Origin: a virus
Virus record (IMG/VR): IMGVR_UViG_3300037808_001901
Length of the DNA stretch: 13,568 nt
Strand: one strand, 5' to 3'
Both the position numbers and the translations under genes were made by a program. The notes under the pieces were generated by a model that was not told where the DNA came from, ran no database searches, and worked only from the letters and a program-made list of their open reading frames with translations. This document shows positions 1,799-12,569 of this stretch, one piece after another; the stretch's first letter is position 1, and each line of letters starts with the position of its first letter.

Positions 1799-4489
1799 TT
1801 ACTGAGGGGCTTGAGTACGTTCAGCACCTCTTGTCAAGGCACCCAAAAATGGTGCCAAGCGTTCCGATCCGCCCAAAATTTGGGTGATCACTTCAACGGC
1901 ACTCTTGCCGCCGATCATTGTCTGGACACTGGTAGCCTCAGCGATCTTGACCGCAACATCATCACGGCTGAGAGCGGTAAGAGCTTCGGTGAATCCACCT
2001 TCCAGAGCAGCGAACTGAGCAATCAAAGCTTCGGAGTCAACCTTCACGCCACCTTGTCGCAATTCTTCAATCGCCACACGACAAGCCTGAGTGTTTGCTT
2101 CCTTGTCTTTGGTTCGACGCATTTCAGCATCATGCGTAACTTGTTCATTGGCAGTTGCTGCCAAAGTAATGTCTTTTCGAGCAACTTCTTGCTCAAGGTC
2201 AGACTTAATCACAGCCAGAGAGTTGGTCAGATTAAGAGTGGTAGTTTCTTGCTGAATTTCAGCTTGGAAACGAACCGTCTCTTGTTTTGCGGTCAACTTC
2301 TCTTTGCTGATTCGCTCATTTTCCACAGTCAACTCAAGGTCACGTTTGGCGTTTTCCAGACTGATGTTCTGGACAACAACGTTCTTTCGAGCTTCGTCGA
2401 GAATCTGAGCAATTCGCTCATCATTCAGTTGAAGATCAAGGACTTCAACGTCAGTGACACGCATACCGTTTTCACTGAAGTACAGACCAGTGAGATCGGT
2501 TTCATCATCAGTGCCATCTTCGGCCTGTTTTGCCAATCGCTTCAACTTGGGGTCTTCTGGATTCTTCACCTTATGAAGAATCGTATCTCGGACAATCGCC
2601 ATACCATTCGTGTAGAACTCTTGAATGGTATTTTGTTTTGCCACACTCTTGAGAATCGACCGGGTGTGGTCGCACAACAGTTTGACGTAATTCTCAACAT
2701 CGAACCAATGTTCTTTGAGTTCTGAATCGAAGTTGACACGATAAGCCAACTTGATCTTAACCTCAATGTTGTCAGAGGTTTCGACGGTAAGCCAATCACT
2801 CACCTTGTTGTTGCTGACACGTAAGTAGACGGTCGGCATCAAGTTGTCAGTGTTTTTCGGCTTGCCCATTGACAATTCGAGAACTTCGAGATTTTCATCG
2901 TAGTCCAGCAAAATGGTCTTGGGGCCAAGTTCGACACGACGTTCGCCAGTCTTACTCACGACCTTGACAGCATAACCTGTCCATAGATCGATAGATGGGA
3001 CATTATCGAACTTACTGCCGACAACAACGGACTTCGGGCCTTTGCGAGCCTGACGACGACCAGCAGCACCACCACGACTTCCAGAAGCTTCGCCCTTTCG
3101 GGTTCGACGACCAGCGTTCTCAAGGTCATCGCTGATTGCTTCAAGACCTTGTGACGAAGTGTGGCCAGCGTAAGAATCGGCTTGACGTGCGAAGTCTTTT
3201 TCGGAGACCAAACCAGATCGACCTGAATTAGATGTTTCCATCATATCTTCAAGTTCGGCATTGTAGGCTGAGACTTCTGCGTTCTCAGGATACATAAGCC
3301 GACATTGACCTTGGCTCAACACACGACGAACAACAAGTTCTTCTCGTGGGTCAGGGAGCAACATCTTGGGGCCGACAATGGTTTCCACATTGCCAGATTC
3401 ACGGTTGAGAAGGTAACGACCTTCACCCTTGGGAATCTGCAAAGCGTAATGCTTGGCATCGGGGCCGAATTGGATGATGGAATGCTCTTTACGTGGGAAG
3501 TAAAGGGCGTTCATTCCGCCAGTGATGAAGATTTCTTCGCCTTCTTTGAAAGACTCGTCGCCATCTTCATAATCTTCGATGACCTTAACATGGATGCCTT
3601 GAGTTTTGTGCAACTCAACGGCTTTGGCCTTTCGGTTTTTGCCTTGTTCCACGAAGGTTTCAGTCGGTTCAGGGAAAACAACTGCTGGTCCACGACAGAA
3701 CCGCTTGTCGCCATTTTCATCGACAAGGATTGTGTGTTCCAGACGTTCAAGCGTAACCGCATCACGAACATAGTTGTTGCCTTCGGGGACAACTTCGACA
3801 CCAGTTGGTGGAATATAGAAACTGCTGTCAGTTCCCTTGATGACGAATAACTTGCCGATGGTCAAATTAAGTTCTTCGGCAGTTGTCGTTGCGTCAATGG
3901 TAGTAGCTTCAGTTTCGCCGTCATTGTTGTCGGCAAGACCACCAGTTTCACCAGCATTAGCTGGCTTGAAGACAGCTTGATCCCAATTTGCCCGTGCTTC
4001 TTCTTCATTGTAAATACGAATGAGAAGATATTGGTTGGACCGTAGGCGATGGCCGGGGATAACGGTCGAGATTTGGCCGGGCCACAAAGCGAAAGTCTTT
4101 GGACCGGGAATGTTAATCTTGCTTCCCATTACAAGAGTCGGGCTGTTTTGTCGATCACTCTCGTTGAATTTGGGGTGTGCTTCATTCTCATTGGACGAGG
4201 GATTTTTGAGAACAATATATTCTCCCTCAGCAGCAATGGGGCACATTCTGACCGAAGCATTCAGATCGCAAGTTCTGAATCGGCCTTCTTCTGCATCGAA
4301 GCCGACTGGACGATCTTGTCCTGTTTGGTTGATCGTACAAGGACCAACACCAACACCAACTCGACCGGACGTTTCGCCTTGCAAATAGGCGTATTCACCG
4401 GGAGCTAAAACTAAGTCACGATCAGCACTTCTGGGTCCACGTTCTCCACCGCCTTGCATGTTACTTCTCCGAAAGTTAGGGGTTTTCAT
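1799..4489 (-). CDS. mvp: major vault protein (MVP) homolog, 896 aa
   Basis: The 896-aa ATG ORF aligns by eye along its whole length with eukaryotic MVP. N-terminal vault repeats: PGEYAYL..VGVGPCT vs PPYHYIH..VEVGPKT; GEYIVLKNP vs HYCTVANP; SFYIPPTGVEVV vs GTYIPRKEVEVV. Shoulder: LAYRVNFD vs LAYNWHFEV; NYVKLLCDHTRSILKSVA vs DFVGDACKAIASRVRGAV. This is followed by a long Ala/Glu/Gln-rich coiled-coil cap-helix segment. An alternative start at Met11 (ATG 4459) has a better SD (GGAGAAG). Confidence 0.85.
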   Translation of the reverse strand: MKTPNFRRSNMQGGGERGPRSADRDLVLAPGEYAYLQGETSGRVGVGVGPCTINQTGQDRPVGFDAEEGRFRTCDLNASVRMCPIAAEGEYIVLKNPSSNENEAHPKFNESDRQNSPTLVMGSKINIPGPKTFALWPGQISTVIPGHRLRSNQYLLIRIYNEEEARANWDQAVFKPANAGETGGLADNNDGETEATTIDATTTAEELNLTIGKLFVIKGTDSSFYIPPTGVEVVPEGNNYVRDAVTLERLEHTILVDENGDKRFCRGPAVVFPEPTETFVEQGKNRKAKAVELHKTQGIHVKVIEDYEDGDESFKEGEEIFITGGMNALYFPRKEHSIIQFGPDAKHYALQIPKGEGRYLLNRESGNVETIVGPKMLLPDPREELVVRRVLSQGQCRLMYPENAEVSAYNAELEDMMETSNSGRSGLVSEKDFARQADSYAGHTSSQGLEAISDDLENAGRRTRKGEASGSRGGAAGRRQARKGPKSVVVGSKFDNVPSIDLWTGYAVKVVSKTGERRVELGPKTILLDYDENLEVLELSMGKPKNTDNLMPTVYLRVSNNKVSDWLTVETSDNIEVKIKLAYRVNFDSELKEHWFDVENYVKLLCDHTRSILKSVAKQNTIQEFYTNGMAIVRDTILHKVKNPEDPKLKRLAKQAEDGTDDETDLTGLYFSENGMRVTDVEVLDLQLNDERIAQILDEARKNVVVQNISLENAKRDLELTVENERISKEKLTAKQETVRFQAEIQQETTTLNLTNSLAVIKSDLEQEVARKDITLAATANEQVTHDAEMRRTKDKEANTQACRVAIEELRQGGVKVDSEALIAQFAALEGGFTEALTALSRDDVAVKIAEATSVQTMIGGKSAVEVITQILGGSERLAPFLGALTRGAERTQAPQ

Positions 4490-6583: not shown

Positions 6584-7167
6584 ATTGCCTCAAATCGGAA
6601 CATCATTTCGTGTACGATCTTTTGAGGATCGAACATTATGCCAGCGTCATCCATTGTGAATTGTTTGTCCCACTTGTCTGTCGCTTCCCAAGTTGGGTCA
6701 ATAAGCTCAGGCTTATTCTTCTTAACCCATGCCTCTAGGAATTCGCAGTCAGTGTCTTCATCATTGCCAATCGCAGCTTTATCCTTGTAATTCCAAACGT
6801 TGCCTTCTTTGGGAATATACGCTCGGAAAGTTTTACCATCTTGGTCAAGATAAACAATGAACTTAATGGGATATTCCCAATCGCCACCAGCAGACCAGCC
6901 AATGAGAGAGAATTGGGTTAAAGGAGATCGAGTCCAAAAAGTTCGTGGGCCTAAGATGCTACACTCAGCCCCGAATTCTTCGTGATCATAAGAGTAATTC
7001 TCAAAGTCAAATTGGACCTTATCAAGATCACTCTGGAATTTTGGACCTAAGCAGTCGAATTCGTAAGGACTAATCCCTTTGCCGCCAAATTTTTCATGGA
7101 ACATTTCCAAGAGTTGGCTGGGATTAACACGTTTAGTCGAACAGGCTTTACGTCTGGCTTTTGGCAT
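6580..7167 (-). CDS. hypothetical protein (195 aa)
   Basis: ATG ORF. It overlaps the upstream gene by 20 nt. No recognisable motif. Confidence 0.5.
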   Translation of the reverse strand: MPKARRKACSTKRVNPSQLLEMFHEKFGGKGISPYEFDCLGPKFQSDLDKVQFDFENYSYDHEEFGAECSILGPRTFWTRSPLTQFSLIGWSAGGDWEYPIKFIVYLDQDGKTFRAYIPKEGNVWNYKDKAAIGNDEDTDCEFLEAWVKKNKPELIDPTWEATDKWDKQFTMDDAGIMFDPQKIVHEMMFRFEAI

Positions 7168-7756
7168 GAACTTCTTCCCACATTAGGAATGCTTCTGATT
7201 CAAGTGCGTGAATCAAACCTTTTGATTCATCCGTTAACTCTTGTGTGTATTCTGGAAGCACAGATGCGGCTCTTACAAGAGAATGTGATTTTATAACTTC
7301 CTCATTAAAATCGTAGCCCGCTTCACTAAGGAAATGGGCCAAACAATCTCTCAAGTTTTCCGTGGTTCCAACAAGATCACAAACCTCTAACAGCCCTTTG
7401 TATCTGGATGTTAAAAATGGGTGATTCCCGTTGCATTCTCTTTGGGTGACGTTTTCAACAAATCGATTAAGATCGTCACTCCAAGCATCTTCTCCCCAAA
7501 GTCTTGTGCAGAACTTCCTACTTCCGTTCAGGAGATAGAAAGCGTGAAATGATTTGTACCATGCGTGTGGATGGCGAAAGACTGTAGCTGTTAAGAATGC
7601 AGGATCGTTGGTTATTTTCTCAACTGCATCTTCAACATTTTTTCTTTCGAAAAGTTTTCTGAGAACGTGATTAACAAAAGAGCCACCATGTTTTGAAACG
7701 TGGTAGAACTTGAGTCTCTTTCCTTCTTTGAGTGGAGAATAATATCTTACATTCAT
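7148..7756 (-). CDS. putative sulfotransferase-like protein (202 aa)
   Basis: KFYHVSKHGGSF resembles the 5'-phosphosulfate-binding F-x-H-[IV]-P-K-[TS]-G-G-[TS] loop of Sulfotransfer_2-type enzymes. The start is set at the internal ATG 7756 because the longer ORF (to 7798) would run into the tRNA at 7760-7863. The ATG lies 3 nt after the tRNA 3' end. Confidence 0.45.
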   Translation of the reverse strand: MNVRYYSPLKEGKRLKFYHVSKHGGSFVNHVLRKLFERKNVEDAVEKITNDPAFLTATVFRHPHAWYKSFHAFYLLNGSRKFCTRLWGEDAWSDDLNRFVENVTQRECNGNHPFLTSRYKGLLEVCDLVGTTENLRDCLAHFLSEAGYDFNEEVIKSHSLVRAASVLPEYTQELTDESKGLIHALESEAFLMWEEVHAKSQT

Positions 7757-7759
7757 GAG

Positions 7760-7863
7760 TGCCCCTAGCAGGACTCGAACCTGCACGCCTTTCGGCACTA
7801 GTTCCTATCGTAGGGTTGTTTAACCCTTAAAACTAGCGTGTCTGCCAATTCCACCATAGGGGC
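7760..7863 (-). tRNA. tRNA-Leu(TAA), type II, with a 22-nt insertion (intron-like) in the anticodon loop
   Basis: Minus strand: GCCCCTA-TG-GTG-GAATTGGCAGA-CAC-G-CTAGT-[TTTAAG|GGTTAAACAACCCTACGATAGG|A]-ACTAG-TGCCGAAAGGCGT-GCAGG-TTCGAGT-CCTGC-TAGGGGC-A. Perfect 7-bp acceptor, long variable arm, discriminator A, canonical D and T arms. 29 nt lie between the anticodon-stem halves, against the normal 7. Confidence 0.6.
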
Positions 7864-7986
7864 ATAATCTGCTTTATGCGTTGCTCCAACACGCCAATTT
7901 TAAATGAGTGGCCACCCAAATTAAATCGACTATAGTCCGAACATTCACATATCGCTGCTATTGTCCAAGGATGCAATGGATGTGAA

Positions 7987-7995
7987 ATTATACCA
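7987..7995 (-). promoter_or_regulatory. candidate extended -10 element (TGGTATAAT on minus strand) upstream of the solo tRNA-Leu
   Basis: Revcomp of 7987-7995 is TGGTATAAT. No good -35 hexamer was found. It lies about 120 nt upstream of the tRNA 5' end. Confidence 0.3.
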
Positions 7996-8030
7996 ATGTC
8001 CCTCGGTTTTAGAGCAACGCATGAAGCAGA

Positions 8031-8664: not shown

Positions 8665-8695
8665 CCATTGTACGAAAATTTTGGGCAATGTAAAG
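8665..8695 (-). promoter_or_regulatory. conserved sigma70-like promoter motif, copy 2 (minus strand)
   Basis: Minus-strand TTTACA(8694-8689)-16 nt-TACAAT(8672-8667). It shares the CCATTGTACGAAAATTTT..GC.A.GTAAA core with copies 1 and 3. It lies immediately downstream of the terminator at 8697-8736. Confidence 0.55.
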
Positions 8696-8696
8696 C

Positions 8697-8736
8697 AAAA
8701 AAGGAGGGCGAAACAGGTCATTATCCCGTTTCGCCC
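8697..8736 (-). terminator. rho-independent terminator (minus strand)
   Basis: 9-bp stem GGGCGAAAC (8706-8714) / GTTTCGCCC (8728-8736) with a 13-nt loop. On the minus strand it is followed by CTCC and T6 (plus-strand A-run 8697-8702). Confidence 0.6.
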
Positions 8737-10095: not shown

Positions 10096-10113
10096 ATGAG
10101 TAGCCTTTTAAGG

Positions 10114-10219
10114 TGTCCAAGGTGGGACTCGAACCCACAAGCCCATTACGGGCGGCAGATTTTAAACGGTGGGTTGACTAACCCATGTCTGCTGTGTTTG
10201 CCAATTTCACCACAAGGAC
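10114..10219 (-). tRNA. type II tRNA-Leu-like gene with a 21-nt anticodon-arm insertion and two T-T mismatches in the acceptor stem (possibly a pseudogene)
   Basis: Minus strand: GTCCTTG-TG-GTG-AAATTGGCAAA-CAC-A-GCAGA-[28 nt: CATGGGTTAGTCAACCCACCGTTTAAAA]-TCTGC-CGCCCGTAATGGGCTT-GTGGG-TTCGAGT-CCCAC-CTTGGAC-A. Removing ATGGGTTAGTCAACCCACCGT leaves the loop CTTAAAA (anticodon TAA). The D-arm is near-identical to the tRNA at 7760-7863. Conserved promoter copy 3 lies 30 nt upstream. Confidence 0.4.
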
Positions 10220-10250: not shown

Positions 10251-10280
10251 CCATTGTACGAAAAAAAATTGCGATGTAAA
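10251..10280 (-). promoter_or_regulatory. conserved sigma70-like promoter motif, copy 3 (minus strand), upstream of the tRNA-like gene
   Basis: Minus-strand TTTACA(10280-10275)-16 nt-TACAAT(10258-10253). It abuts the TAG stop of the XRE-like gene (10282-10284). Confidence 0.55.
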
Positions 10281-10549: not shown

Positions 10550-10576
10550 TAAAAAAGTTACCATATCTAGGTAACC
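10550..10576 (-). terminator. possible terminator-like hairpin overlapping the S4 gene stop
   Basis: GTTACC (10557-10562) / GGTAAC (10571-10576), a 6-bp stem with a 7-nt loop. On the minus strand it is followed by T6 (plus-strand A-run 10550-10555). The stem is short and AT-rich, so this is weak. Confidence 0.3.
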
Positions 10577-10761
10577 GTGGCTGATTTTTTGGCTTTAATG
10601 CCCACTTCAATAAGGTCGCCTTTTCCGACCATTTTGTCAATATCAAGAATCTTTGTCCCATCAACTCGAACACCGCCCTGACAAATTAGACGACGAGCTT
10701 CAGAACAAGAGACAACAAGCTTTAAATTAGCCATTTCCCGCACTAGGTTTTTGTCTTCCAT
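10567..10761 (-). CDS. S4-domain RNA-binding protein (64 aa)
   Basis: SEARRLICQGGVRVDGTKILDIDKMVGKGDLIEV follows the S4 motif (ARRLI.QG.V.VNG......D..V..GD.I). SD AGGAG precedes the ATG. It overlaps the upstream gene by 19 nt. Confidence 0.6.
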   Translation of the reverse strand: MEDKNLVREMANLKLVVSCSEARRLICQGGVRVDGTKILDIDKMVGKGDLIEVGIKAKKSATVT

Positions 10762-11261
10762 ATCTTCTCCTCTACATCAAATGTTCTTGCCAATACAAAC
10801 AAGTAATCGCTTAAACGATTAAGATAAGGAACAACAAGAGCAAATCTTCTGATGGAATCCGGTGTTGAATCTTTTCTCTCTGCTTCCCAAGCAGAAACCA
10901 CTCTTTCTGCTCTTCGACAAACAGTTCTTGCCACATGAATCTCAGGAGTGGATTTTGGAATAATGAAATTCTTTAATTCTGGCAAATCACTTTCCATAAG
11001 ATCAATAAGCGATTCAAGCTGGGTAATATCGTCTTCTGTTATTCTTGTGTTCCCTATCGCAAGTTGTGCCCCTATTTCCATCAGGTCTCTTTGAATTTTC
11101 TCTAAGACAGGCACATCCATTATTTTATCTCGGATCATTCCAATCCAAGCATTAAGTTCATCAATTTCACCTTGTCCATCGACAGAACAATCATGTTTTG
11201 GAACACGCATCCCACTGCTTAATGTGGTCCCGTTATCGCCGGTTTTTGTGTAAATTTTCAT
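10743..11261 (-). CDS. ATP:cob(I)alamin adenosyltransferase, PduO/MMAB-type
   Basis: N-terminus MKIYTKTGDNGTT is the signature start of PduO-type corrinoid adenosyltransferases (MKIYTRTGDKGxT). GEIDELNAWIG matches the following conserved helix. 172 aa. ATGA overlap with the S24-like gene. Confidence 0.75.
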   Translation of the reverse strand: MKIYTKTGDNGTTLSSGMRVPKHDCSVDGQGEIDELNAWIGMIRDKIMDVPVLEKIQRDLMEIGAQLAIGNTRITEDDITQLESLIDLMESDLPELKNFIIPKSTPEIHVARTVCRRAERVVSAWEAERKDSTPDSIRRFALVVPYLNRLSDYLFVLARTFDVEEKIWKTKT

Positions 11262-11934: not shown

Positions 11935-11970
11935 AAGATCAATATAACATAAATAATCTTATAAGAAAAG

Positions 11971-12059
11971 CGGTGAGGACAGGATTTGAACCTGCGGAGG
12001 GTATTTCACCTCTTCGGTTTTCGAAACCGACGCCTTAAACCAAGCTCAGCCACCTCACC
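11971..12059 (-). tRNA. tRNA-Ser(CGA), type II
   Basis: GGTGAGG-TG-GCT-GAGCTTGGTTTAA-GGC-G-TCGGT-TTCGAAA-ACCGA-long variable arm AGAGGTGAAATACCCTCC-GCAGG-TTCAAAT-CCTGT-CCTCACC-G. Canonical cloverleaf, discriminator G. Confidence 0.8.
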
Positions 12060-12065
12060 GTAAAG

Positions 12066-12145
12066 CGGAAAAGACGGGAATCGAACCCGCATGACCCTTT
12101 CGGGCCAACTTGTTTAGCAAACAAGCCCGGCGACACCACACTTCC
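12066..12145 (-). tRNA. tRNA-Ser(GCT)-like gene with truncated or aberrant D-arm (possible pseudogene)
   Basis: Anticodon arm CTTGT-TTGCTAA-ACAAG, long variable arm GGCCC-GAAA-GGGTC and T arm GCGGG-TTCGATT-CCCGT are intact. Only 13 nt lie between the acceptor and the anticodon stem (about 19 expected). The acceptor stem has one T-T mismatch. Confidence 0.4.
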
Positions 12146-12165
12146 GGCTCTCTTCCAGTGTCAAG

Positions 12166-12249
12166 CGGAGGACACGGGATTTGAACCCGCAAGCCATATT
12201 TCAGACCAACTGCTTTCCAAGCAGTCCGCTAACCGTTCGCTTATCCTCC
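12166..12249 (-). tRNA. tRNA-Ser(GGA)-like gene with non-pairing D-stem (possible pseudogene)
   Basis: Acceptor GGAGGAT/GTCCTCC, anticodon arm ACTGC-TTGGAAA-GCAGT and T arm GCGGG-TTCAAAT-CCCGT are present. The D region AAGCGAACGGTTAGCGG contains a direct repeat (AGCG..AGCG) rather than complementary halves. The variable arm is poorly paired. Confidence 0.4.
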
Positions 12250-12319
12250 ATTATGATGGCTGCAACTCAGGGACTTTTAGCCCGCAGCAGGGTAGTCTTA
12301 TTCCTGAGCAATCATCAAG

Positions 12320-12400
12320 TACCCGTGGCGAGAGTCGAACTCGCAAGCCTTGCGGCACCAGATTCTAAGTCTGGCGTGTTTACCGTTTCACCACACGGGC
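12320..12400 (-). tRNA. tRNA-Leu(TAG), type II
   Basis: GCCCGTG-TG-GTG-AAACGGTAAA-CAC-G-CCAGA-CTTAGAA-TCTGG-TGCCGCAAGGCTT-GCGAG-TTCGACT-CTCGC-CACGGGT-A. Canonical cloverleaf, G1-T72 wobble, discriminator A. Confidence 0.8.
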
Positions 12401-12404
12401 ATAG

Positions 12405-12478
12405 TAGCACTGGTCGGAGTCGAACCGACAAACACTTAGTTTTAAGCTAAGCCGCTTTGCCAATTAGCGTACAGTGCC
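12405..12478 (-). tRNA. type I (short variable arm) tRNA with anticodon TAA (Leu by anticodon)
   Basis: GGCACTG-TA-CGC-TAATTGGCAAA-GCG-G-CTTAG-CTTAAAA-CTAAG-TGTTT-GTCGG-TTCGACT-CCGAC-CAGTGCT-A. Canonical 74-nt cloverleaf, discriminator A. 5-nt variable loop, which is unusual for a Leu decoder. Confidence 0.6.
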
Positions 12479-12484
12479 AAAAAG

Positions 12485-12564
12485 TAGCCTTGGTGGGAGT
12501 CGAACCCACAAAATCACCAGATTCTAAATCTAGCCGCTTTGCCATTAGGTTTGCGTACAAGGCC
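12485..12564 (-). tRNA. type I tRNA with anticodon TAG (Leu by anticodon), long D-loop
   Basis: GGCCTTG-TA-CGC-AAACCTAATGGCAAA-GCG-G-CTAGA-TTTAGAA-TCTGG-TGATTTT-GTGGG-TTCGACT-CCCAC-CAAGGCT-A. 15-nt D-loop and 7-nt variable loop. Discriminator A. Confidence 0.5.
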
Positions 12565-12569
12565 ATAAG

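Follow-up and report, generated by a model that had tools for sequence, protein, structure and literature searches.

How does a tRNA gene of a bacterial virus come to carry some twenty surplus nucleotides in its anticodon loop, and are these nucleotides removed from the transcript? To our knowledge, the only characterised tRNA introns of bacteria and their viruses are self-splicing group I ribozymes, and we know of no splicing-endonuclease pathway in Bacteria. The splicing of tRNAs by proteins is considered a feature of archaea and eukaryotes, and no short protein-spliced tRNA intron is known to us from bacteria or their phages. Literature searches turned up no relevant report of short, protein-spliced, or bulge-helix-bulge (BHB) introns in tRNAs of phages or bacteria. 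The window, that is, the whole stretch of 13,568 nucleotides of viral DNA that was analysed, contains two interrupted tRNA-Leu genes, which are called tRNA A and tRNA B here. Precise protein-based excision of the insert followed by re-ligation of the halves is, with a probability of about one half as judged from sequence, the best explanation of the insert.

The window is, to judge from its genes and signals, part of an uncultivated huge phage of bacteria and not of an archaeal or eukaryotic virus. Its ORFs are densely packed on a single strand. An 896-aa protein (1799-4489) has the shoulder and repeat domains of the major vault protein (MVP) and shares 39% identity with proteins of LR756501, LR756503, and LR756500, which are recorded as 'uncultured phage' (735-kb and 462-kb genomes). 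Other ORFs of the window match phage families of phosphoribosyltransferases and DEDDh exonucleases. Comparison of the whole window with 50,697 phage records by megablast gave zero matches. In the 735-kb genome LR756501, the 40 kb that surround the MVP homologue were scanned and contain no tRNA. A tRNA array at 11970-13553 specifies Leu, Ser, Tyr, and Phe only, according to ARAGORN, and its tRNA-Tyr is a long-arm class II molecule of the bacterial type. A consensus scan detected sigma-70-like promoters and a strong intrinsic terminator in the window, and a truncated leucyl-tRNA synthetase (LeuRS) fragment of the bacterial type lies beside a Leu tRNA array in one relative. The class II tRNA-Tyr, the bacterial-type LeuRS of the relative, the sigma-70-like promoters, and the intrinsic terminators together argue for a bacterial host. 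The array includes intron-less tRNA-Leu genes for both tag and taa (Table 1), and therefore the interrupted genes A and B duplicate anticodons that the phage already has.

tRNA A, read on the minus strand from 7863 to 7760, has the sequence GCCCCUAUGGUGGAAUUGGCAGACACGCUAGUUUUAAGGGUUAAACAACCCUACGAUAGGAACUAGUGCCGAAAGGCGUGCAGGUUCGAGUCCUGCUAGGGGCA. The initial annotation described it as a class II tRNA-Leu that is canonical apart from its anticodon loop, and this description holds. The gene scores 47.2 bits against Rfam RF00005 (gathering score 29; E 1.3e-7 for the window) with all 71 model positions matched. The expected class II Leu features are present, namely U8, A14, G18G19, the T-loop UUCGAGU, the A73 discriminator, and a variable arm of 12 nt with a 3-bp stem; CCA is not encoded. 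The two strands of the anticodon stem, CUAGU and ACUAG, are separated by 29 nt, which confirms the earlier count of a 22-nt surplus, and a 7-nt loop is obtained only once 22 nt have been removed. In the Rfam alignment, the insertion in the anticodon loop measures 24 nt. Default ARAGORN reported 11 other tRNAs in the window and missed tRNA A. The intron-aware mode (-i), which had been proposed as a check, recovered it as Leu(tag) (score 110.9) and put a 22-nt intron either within the anticodon or on its 5' side. The insert can be placed in three equivalent registers because of repeated bases (tRNA positions 35-56, 36-57, and 37-58), and each of them leaves the mature loop UUUAGGA. The predicted junction sequence after excision in the 5' register is CUAGUUUUAGGAACUAG.

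tRNA B is also an interrupted class II tRNA-Leu, and its insert, CAUGGGUUAGUCAACCCACCG, is clearly homologous to that of tRNA A. The copy in the window was missed by both default ARAGORN and Rfam, and its acceptor stem contains two U-U mismatches; the L012 orthologue is recognised by Rfam with 40.6 bits. The motif GGGUUANNCAACCC occurs with zero mismatches at only two sites in the window, which are the two interrupted tRNAs. When the 3' half of tRNA B was compared with phage tRNA-Leu genes by BLAST, homology started at the first or second base of the loop (query 54/55). The predicted junction sequences after excision are GCAGACUUAAAAUCUGC / GCAGAUUUAAAAUCUGC.

Table 1. Features of the interrupted tRNA genes and of the adjacent array in the window, followed by the predicted insert registers of the A-type variants (the sign ^ marks the insert boundaries).
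Feature	Sequence	Position	Strand	Basis or product
tRNA A, interrupted class II tRNA-Leu(UAG), 104 nt		7760..7863	(-)	Rfam, ARAGORN -i, syntenic relatives
tRNA A insert envelope, 22 nt		7806..7829	(-)	register enumeration and alignment with intron-less phage tRNA-Leu(tag)
tRNA A insert hairpin, 5 bp (6 bp with flanking A-U pair)	GGGUU-AAAC-AACCC	7813..7826	(-)	folding, 10-variant covariation
tRNA A predicted anticodon, followed by G37, A38; directly 5' of the 3' anticodon-stem strand	UAG	7805..7807	(-)	UAGGA invariant in 4/4 A-type variants
Triplet read as anticodon in the initial annotation; comparatively, loop/insert sequence	UAA	7827..7829	(-)	UAA, AAG, AGG, UGG across the four A-type variants
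tRNA B, interrupted class II tRNA-Leu(UAA), 107 nt		10113..10219 (10112-10219 in ARAGORN -i)	(-)	ARAGORN -i Leu(taa), 21-nt intron, score 106.9
tRNA B insert envelope, 21 nt		10166..10187	(-)	registers 31/32 or 32/33; intact loop UUUAAAA 3' of insert
tRNA B insert hairpin	GGGUU-AGUC-AACCC	10171-10184	(-)	motif occurrence, ARAGORN -i, register enumeration
tRNA B predicted anticodon	UAA	10162-10164	(-)	register enumeration, ARAGORN
Sigma-70-like promoter, ~34 nt upstream of tRNA B	TTTACA-16-TACAAT	10253..10280	(-)	10/12 consensus matches; consensus match only
Intron-less tRNA-Leu(tag)		12319-12400	(-)	ARAGORN and Rfam; adjacent array
Intron-less tRNA-Leu(taa), 75 nt		12404-12478	(-)	ARAGORN and Rfam; adjacent array
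A-type register, window	CUAGU-UUU^AAGGG...CGAU^AGGA	34/35		product UUUAGGA
A-type register, L008	CUAGU-UU^AAGGG...CAAU^UAGGA	33/34		product UUUAGGA
A-type register, L154	CUGGU-U^AAGGG...CAAG^UUAGGA	32/33		product UUUAGGA
A-type register, L106	CAAGU-C^CUGGG...UAAU^UUAGGA	32/33		product CUUAGGA

The position of the insert decides which anticodon the genes would present. The initial annotation read TAA in tRNA A and placed the insert at 37/38, the canonical intron position. The comparison drew on ten distinct variants, four of type A and six of type B, which come from at least five lineages of related phages. Every deletion that leaves a 7-nt loop was enumerated in nine of these ten variants (L008B equals the window B copy except in the T stem). 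With the insert placed on the 5' side, all A variants have UAG and all B variants have UAA, and only a register 5' of the anticodon yielded a single anticodon per orthologue group. ARAGORN forced to 37/38 gave taa, aag, aag, ggg, tgg, tgg, agg, gga, and tcg in the nine variants, with the isotypes Leu, Leu, Leu, Pro, Pro, Pro, Pro, Ser, and Arg, a set that makes no sense for a single tRNA-Leu family. Enumeration at 37/38 gave UAA in the window and, in the other variants, AAG, one loop that lacks U33, UGG three times, AGG, GGA, and UCG.

Alignment with intron-less genes led to the same position. The closest intron-less tRNAs belong to the Streptomyces phages GiJojo and Blueeyedbeauty and to the Rhizobium phage RHph_TM30, all annotated as Leu(tag), and MAFFT placed the gap between GCUAG(U) and YUUAGGA-ACUAG. 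In addition, the 5' half of tRNA A (query 1-36) and its 3' half (from query 57, where UAGGA begins) each match phage tRNA-Leu genes on their own. The registers of the variants, the alignment with intron-less genes, and the separately matching halves indicate that tRNA A is, on these comparisons, a tRNA-Leu(UAG) with its insert 5' of the anticodon, at 31/32 to 34/35 depending on the lineage. The TAA reading must then give way to UAG, and the 37/38 placement is abandoned with it. The analogy with archaeal and eukaryotic 37/38 introns fails on position as well as on structure. The BHB search that had been suggested was run as a strict-motif script over the registers of nine variants, not as a covariance model, and it found no loop-restoring register with consistent 4/4 central-helix pairs and 3-nt bulges.

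The initial annotation set the insert apart from group I introns, and correctly so. Such introns have about 200 nt or more and a ribozyme core (P3-P9); the inserts have 21-22 nt, and no Rfam family other than tRNA matches. Between positions 7700 and 7920, cmscan with Rfam at E<=10 returned only the tRNA and a spurious plastid match on the opposite strand, with no Intron_gpI and no ribozyme. Inspection of the insert and its flanks by eye revealed no hammerhead core motifs.

Comparison of the ten variants shows how the genes have changed. In the 10-sequence alignment (A5), 95% of the cells are standard pairs and 17 of the 28 pairs are changed on both sides. In a shuffle control, 0/500 replicates reached the observed values for four of five measures (further pair types, 49/500), and partner-slid controls gave pairing of 30-46%. 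Covariation is found in every variable helix of the cloverleaf, and the D stem is invariant. The mini-hairpin that had been noticed in the insert is borne out, as the stem GGGUU/AACCC is predicted by folding and covaries in the variants. Pairing in its columns (38-42/47-51) reaches 90%, and both partners have changed in three of the pairs, with replacements of GC by AU, GC by CG, and UA by CG/UG. The hairpin stem of L106B (GGACU/AGUCU) consists of nearly wholly different letters with the pairing kept. Columns 35 and 56 possibly form an extra closing pair (CG 5, UA 3, UG 1, mismatch 1), which largely follows the split between A and B and is therefore no more than suggestive. The hairpin loops share the motif A-R-N-C (AAAC, AGUC, and AGAC). 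A manual count for the window A copy and L154A showed differences at 7/22 positions of the insert and at about 11% of the exons. The covariation of the hairpin and the faster divergence of the insert indicate that the insert is, as far as these variants tell, constrained in fold and not in sequence. Mimicry of RNase P or minihelix substrates by the hairpin plus its tail was considered and rejected; the tails (ACGA, ACAA, ACCG, UUCG, GUAA, and others) have no conserved NCCA-like end.

The insert slides along the loop from one lineage to another, and its deletion restores a canonical loop each time. The allowed registers are 31/32 or 32/33 in L106A, 32/33 in L154A, 32/33-33/34 in L008A, and 33/34-35/36 in the window. 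Once 21-22 nt are deleted, each A variant is left with UUUAGGA or CUUAGGA as its loop, and each B variant with CUUAAAA or UUUAAAA. In nine of the ten variants, a 7-nt loop that contains U33 is already contiguous with the 3' stem, the exception being the window-type A copy. In this copy GA adjoins UAGGA, and therefore U33 can come only from the 5' side of the insert; a canonical loop is obtained only if the insert is precisely removed. A single cut rule, derived by hand, has the first cut follow the Y of the closing pair and the second fall one base past its R partner, and it yields Y32-U33-NNN-R37-A38 in 10/10 variants and CUUAAAA from all B variants. The rule would imply a 2-nt 3' stagger of the RNase III type, which we take as a lead rather than a result. 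Runs of U make the registers degenerate, and for an enzyme of the RNase III type the helices are short.

Both interrupted genes are found in relatives of the phage. tRNA A is present at syntenic sites in L008, L012, L017, L081, L106, L154, and L156, and orthologues of tRNA B are present in L008, L012, L088, L106, and L154. Rfam reports a 104-nt tRNA at the matching location in L008/L009/L010, L012-L016, and L017. L011 has neither interrupted tRNA at the syntenic sites. The contigs syntenic with the window carry homologues of a 202-aa ORF at about 47-57% identity; L081, L088, and L106 were found by a pattern scan of metagenomes, and L154-L163 through the 83-aa neighbour of tRNA B. At least five lineages have kept the interrupted genes in syntenic positions, with flanks that are only 68-78% identical. 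The initial annotation had named a degenerate pseudogene in all relatives as an outcome that would speak against it; instead, gene and insert are conserved in the relatives. The commonest A-type allele is shared by the window, L012, L017, L081, and L156. tRNA A is 100% identical among the window, L012, and L017, and L017 agrees with the window at 139/140 positions upstream of tRNA A and at 68% downstream. This identity may result partly from recent recombination rather than from selection. That the 22-nt insert of the window shows zero differences from L012/L017 had been considered as proof of purifying selection on its sequence, an argument that is weakened by these signs of recombination; the more distant variants show that the letters of the insert can vary freely.

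The interrupted-Leu family was not found in 50,697 phage records, in IMG/VR, or in 185,579 prokaryotic genomes (one per species), and the 202-aa protein used as a query in IMG/VR gave no related loci. Several pattern searches produced candidates that were rejected. In IMG/VR, an anticodon-arm pattern gave three matches, all by chance and in coding DNA rather than tRNA; a pattern of D-arm-to-T-arm spacing gave 38 loci, which belong to tRNAs outside the family whose variable regions are very long or whose loops are unusual; and a pattern of D-arm plus hairpin gave 1 chance match. The last pattern gave 38 loci in GTDB species genomes, chance matches throughout, and 56 loci in metagenome contigs, where the true members are only L080, L081, L088, and L106.

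The shifting register combined with the invariant reconstituted loop favours the reading of the insert as an excised intron and is hard to explain otherwise. Since 22 nt are too few for a group I ribozyme and Rfam detects none, excision would need proteins. In the primary transcript, the G-C-rich hairpin of the insert, usually extended by one Y-R closing pair, would bulge the anticodon nucleotides out, and the transcript would be non-decoding. A protein endonuclease could then grip the hairpin as its handle and cut the transcript at either flank, and an RNA ligase of the RtcB or Rnl type, encoded by the phage or the host, would rejoin the halves to give a normal 7-nt loop. We infer excision itself, its enzymes, and its biological purpose from these patterns. 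The most likely purpose would be a reserve of Leu tRNAs with U-rich anticodons that is hidden from host anticodon nucleases, or a timed supply of these tRNAs. The initial annotation had suggested shielding from anticodon nucleases and a phage-encoded processing activity, and both ideas are compatible with the findings.

A more specific proposal is a form of tRNA splicing in huge phages that is neither ribozyme-based nor BHB-based and that combines endonuclease excision by staggered, RNase III-like cuts, a ligase, and a removable shield against anticodon nucleases. In this full form the proposal is tentative and less likely than not to be right. The staggered cuts would leave a 2-nt 3' overhang and 3'-OH/5'-P ends suited to a ligase of the Rnl type, and the insert would act as the shield until the phage matures its Leu tRNAs with U-rich anticodons. 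No endonuclease or ligase, EndA-like enzymes included, was found in neighbourhoods of roughly 20 kb around the loci. The presence of both genes at syntenic sites, the promoter-like site of tRNA B, and the precedent of the Lak megaphages speak for excision. The intron-less Leu tRNAs with UAG and UAA, which cover decoding, and the lack of both genes in L011 count against it, and so does the contiguous U33 loop of nine variants in ten, which is compatible with non-removal.

The insert may instead never be removed, in which case the product would be a non-decoding tRNA-like RNA that serves as a nuclease decoy or sponge or as a leucine-chargeable tRNA with an extra-ribosomal role. We regard this explanation as unlikely on balance, though it is the main rival of excision. 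Both genes are of the Leu isotype, for whose identity bacterial LeuRS does not read the anticodon. The intron-less copies of the array duplicate the anticodons of both genes, and the truncated LeuRS beside a Leu tRNA array in a relative fits the same explanation. The contiguous U33 loop is what a mimic of a nuclease target would keep, and the loops are U-rich, the type that Cas13a cuts. Cas13a prefers U-rich anticodons, those of tRNA-Leu among them (PMC11042736), and host anticodon nucleases have been proposed to shape phage tRNAs (PMC10264068). However, the commonest A-type allele has A, not U, at the would-be position 33 while the insert is in place. The compensating one-base shifts among variants (UUUU...GA-UAGGA vs UUU...AAUUAGGA) preserve the post-excision loop, for which a decoy has no obvious need. 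Excision and permanent retention are not exclusive in every respect, as a removable insert could itself be the shield.

The remaining explanations are weaker. The tRNA shape could be a processing signal in a polycistronic transcript, at which RNase P and RNase Z free the downstream mRNA, the insert being a tolerated passenger. The ATG of the 202-aa ORF lies 3 nt past the discriminator of tRNA A, in an arrangement conserved in relatives, and the consensus scan found no promoter-like site directly upstream of tRNA A on its own strand. This is nevertheless improbable, as it leaves unexplained the homologous insert in tRNA B, which has a promoter-like site and no abutting ORF, as well as the covariation of the hairpin, the invariant anticodons, and the conserved reconstitutable loops. 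A small palindromic insertion that inactivated a tRNA gene, followed by drift, would agree with the failure of default tRNA finders on both genes and with the duplicated anticodons, but the chance of such a pseudogene is very small: compensatory changes are seen in the cloverleaf helices (the D stem being invariant), the identity elements and the insert fold are kept, the latter by compensatory change, and neither gene has been lost from its syntenic position in at least five lineages. The lowest probability falls to a tRNA-Leu(UAA) with an intron of the archaeal/eukaryotic type at the canonical site 37/38 and a BHB cut by a splicing endonuclease. It suits the window copy alone, where UUUAAG^A is plausible with G37 and is accepted by ARAGORN fixed at 37/38. 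The other orthologues and paralogues give aag, aag, ggg, tgg, tgg, agg, gga, and tcg, no register shows 3-nt bulges on either side of a central helix whose 4 bp are conserved, and the host is to all appearance bacterial.

Excision would have its nearest precedent in the Lak megaphages, whose introns are the sole precedent found for non-group-I tRNA introns in phages. These introns were described as 'enigmatic', conserved, and non-group-I, with no match in Rfam (Devoto et al. 2019, PMC6784885). They measure 79-114 nt, interrupt Tyr, Phe, Thr, and Gly tRNAs, and in at least one case hold a tRNA-like sequence recognised by Rfam; they lie 3' of the anticodon, at a predicted 37/38 that was one base off in the sole alignment-checked case, tRNA-Thr (PMC6784885). 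The window and Lak have in common a non-ribozyme insert in the anticodon loop of huge-phage tRNA genes that is conserved among relatives. Both also have a small hairpin with an A-rich loop (ACAGG-AAACA-ACCUG in Lak, where it stands at the start of the intron, and GGGUU-AAAC-AACCC in tRNA A), a visual resemblance only. In contrast to Lak, the insert described here has 21-22 nt, consists essentially of the hairpin alone, lies 5' of the anticodon, and occurs in only two Leu tRNAs.

The cyanobacterial tRNA-Leu(UAA) contains a group I intron at 34/35. Group I introns are also carried by tRNA-Asn and tRNA-Asp of Patescibacteria (PMC13011429). The present insert resembles bacterial group I tRNA introns in lying near position 34 in the anticodon loop of bacterial-type tRNAs, tRNA-Leu(UAA) among them. 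Group I introns are self-splicing, exceed ~200 nt, and have a catalytic core, whereas a single hairpin of 21-22 nt cannot self-splice in that way. Archaeal and eukaryotic tRNA introns form a BHB and are removed by a splicing endonuclease together with RtcB or Trl1, and some archaea have short introns at non-canonical positions. These introns share with the insert a similar size range, a perturbed loop in the precursor, and the proposed logic of cutting followed by ligation, but the insert has no BHB, is not at 37/38, and belongs to a phage with an apparently bacterial host. PrrC-type nucleases cut 5' of the wobble base, and T4 Pnkp/Rnl1 repair acts against PrrC. Phage tRNAs have been proposed to bear loop changes that avoid host nucleases (PMC10264068). 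T4 repair and nuclease-evading phage tRNAs involve the same site, 5' of the wobble base, where phage ligases reseal; unlike the present case, they mend damage or use point substitutions, with no genomically encoded insert. The minimal size, the position, and the sliding register suggest that this insert family is set apart from the known classes of tRNA introns. These features suggest, and do not prove, an undescribed step of tRNA cutting and rejoining in bacterial viruses.

The system is a tractable minimal case, with ~22 nt, one hairpin, two paralogous tRNAs, ten natural variants, and a series of shifted registers that predicts the same mature loop. If excision is true, it would represent a new RNA-processing activity in the bacterial virosphere, and the hairpin could be used as bait for the enzyme. 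If the insert is not excised, these genes would encode conserved tRNA mimics whose anticodon arm is blocked, the first of their kind, and would bear on the present debate over phage tRNAs as a means to counter tRNA-cleaving defence. Annotation in bacterial mode misses both genes, and phage tRNA inventories are therefore likely undercounted.

The 202-aa ORF downstream of tRNA A matched nothing in Pfam, NCBIfam, PHROG, or PDB, and its AlphaFold model (pLDDT 44) was unusable. L011 has the ORF without tRNA A, and therefore the two are not obligatorily linked. The N-terminal part of the protein contains a conserved motif, KxYHVSKHGG, which may resemble sulfotransferase motifs.

The interrupted tRNA-Leu(UAG) of the window, tRNA A, appears to mark a recombination breakpoint between phage lineages, because sequence identity to the related contig L017 drops immediately after the tRNA. 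When L017 (1–850) was compared with window positions 7150–8000, 139 of 140 positions upstream of tRNA A were identical, as was tRNA A itself, while the ORF directly downstream was only 68% identical. The 202-aa ORF abutting tRNA A carries a strictly conserved N-terminal motif, KEGKRLKxYHxSKHGG. It matched no family in Pfam, NCBIfam or PHROG, had no solved relative in the PDB, and had no confident structure model in AlphaFold.

The second interrupted tRNA, tRNA B, was detected neither by ARAGORN in its default mode nor by Rfam. Its acceptor stem contains two U-U mismatches, at positions 5-68 and 6-67, which are kept in four of the six distinct sequences of this type; the orthologues in the related contigs L106 and L154 have Watson-Crick pairs at both positions. 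Genes for a cobalamin adenosyltransferase and a small S4 protein sit just upstream of tRNA B. In L011, a relative with neither interrupted tRNA, the adenosyltransferase is absent and the S4 protein is retained.

Features near the interrupted tRNAs and in related or other phage contigs
Feature	Location	Strand	Remarks
896-aa protein	window 1799-4489	-	major-vault-protein shoulder and repeat domains
202-aa ORF abutting tRNA A	window 7148-7756	-	
Promoter-like TTTACA-16-TACAAT, two copies, the first together with a terminator hairpin	window 8667-8736 and 10253-10280	-	
tRNA B, interrupted tRNA-Leu(UAA)	window 10113-10219	-	21-nt hairpin insert homologous to tRNA A insert
64-aa protein	window 10567-10761	-	S4/TyrRS-C-terminal-like RNA-binding domain
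PduO-type cobalamin adenosyltransferase	window 10743-11261	-	PF01923, E 3e-46
tRNA array	window 11970-13553	-	Leu, Ser, Tyr, Phe only
75-nt tRNAs, Leu anticodons, short variable arm	window 12404-12478, 12569-12643	-	
Similar 75-nt tRNAs in relatives	L088 2908-3303; L008 671-998		
Truncated bacterial-type leucyl-tRNA synthetase, 411 aa	L008 2005-3240; L010 808-2043	+ (L008)	TIGR00396
tRNA-like gene	L020 5812-5921		IMG/VR 3300025646_000055; 13-nt anticodon loop UUUAAGGCGCCAG

Leu, Ser and Tyr are the three bacterial long-arm tRNA classes, and the Leu isoacceptors of the window array are present in many duplicates. The isotype bias of this array may reflect a host defence aimed at these tRNAs. 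A long variable arm is the norm for bacterial Leu tRNAs. The 75-nt tRNAs with Leu anticodons are class I in shape, almost identical to one another, and carry the discriminator A73; their anticodons are UAA and CAA in the window, with UAG as well in relatives. The window contains no leucyl-tRNA synthetase gene. The truncated gene of a relative adjoins that relative's Leu tRNA array, and its product scored 388 bits (E 6e-116) against TIGR00396, under the full-length cutoff.

IMG/VR phage contigs unrelated to the window (L018, L019, L020, L022 and others) hold tRNA-like genes that combine a D arm of the Leu type with a very long variable region of about 35–45 nt. In L027 and L046, a GGGG...CCCC hairpin separates the two halves of the anticodon stem. 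Further oddly expanded phage tRNAs therefore exist.

One promoter-like copy directly follows a G-C-rich, 12-bp terminator hairpin (8706–8736). Major-vault-protein homologues are uncommon in phages; the 896-aa vault-like protein shares 39% identity with proteins encoded by 735-kb and 462-kb genomes labelled 'uncultured phage' (LR756501, LR756503 and LR756500).
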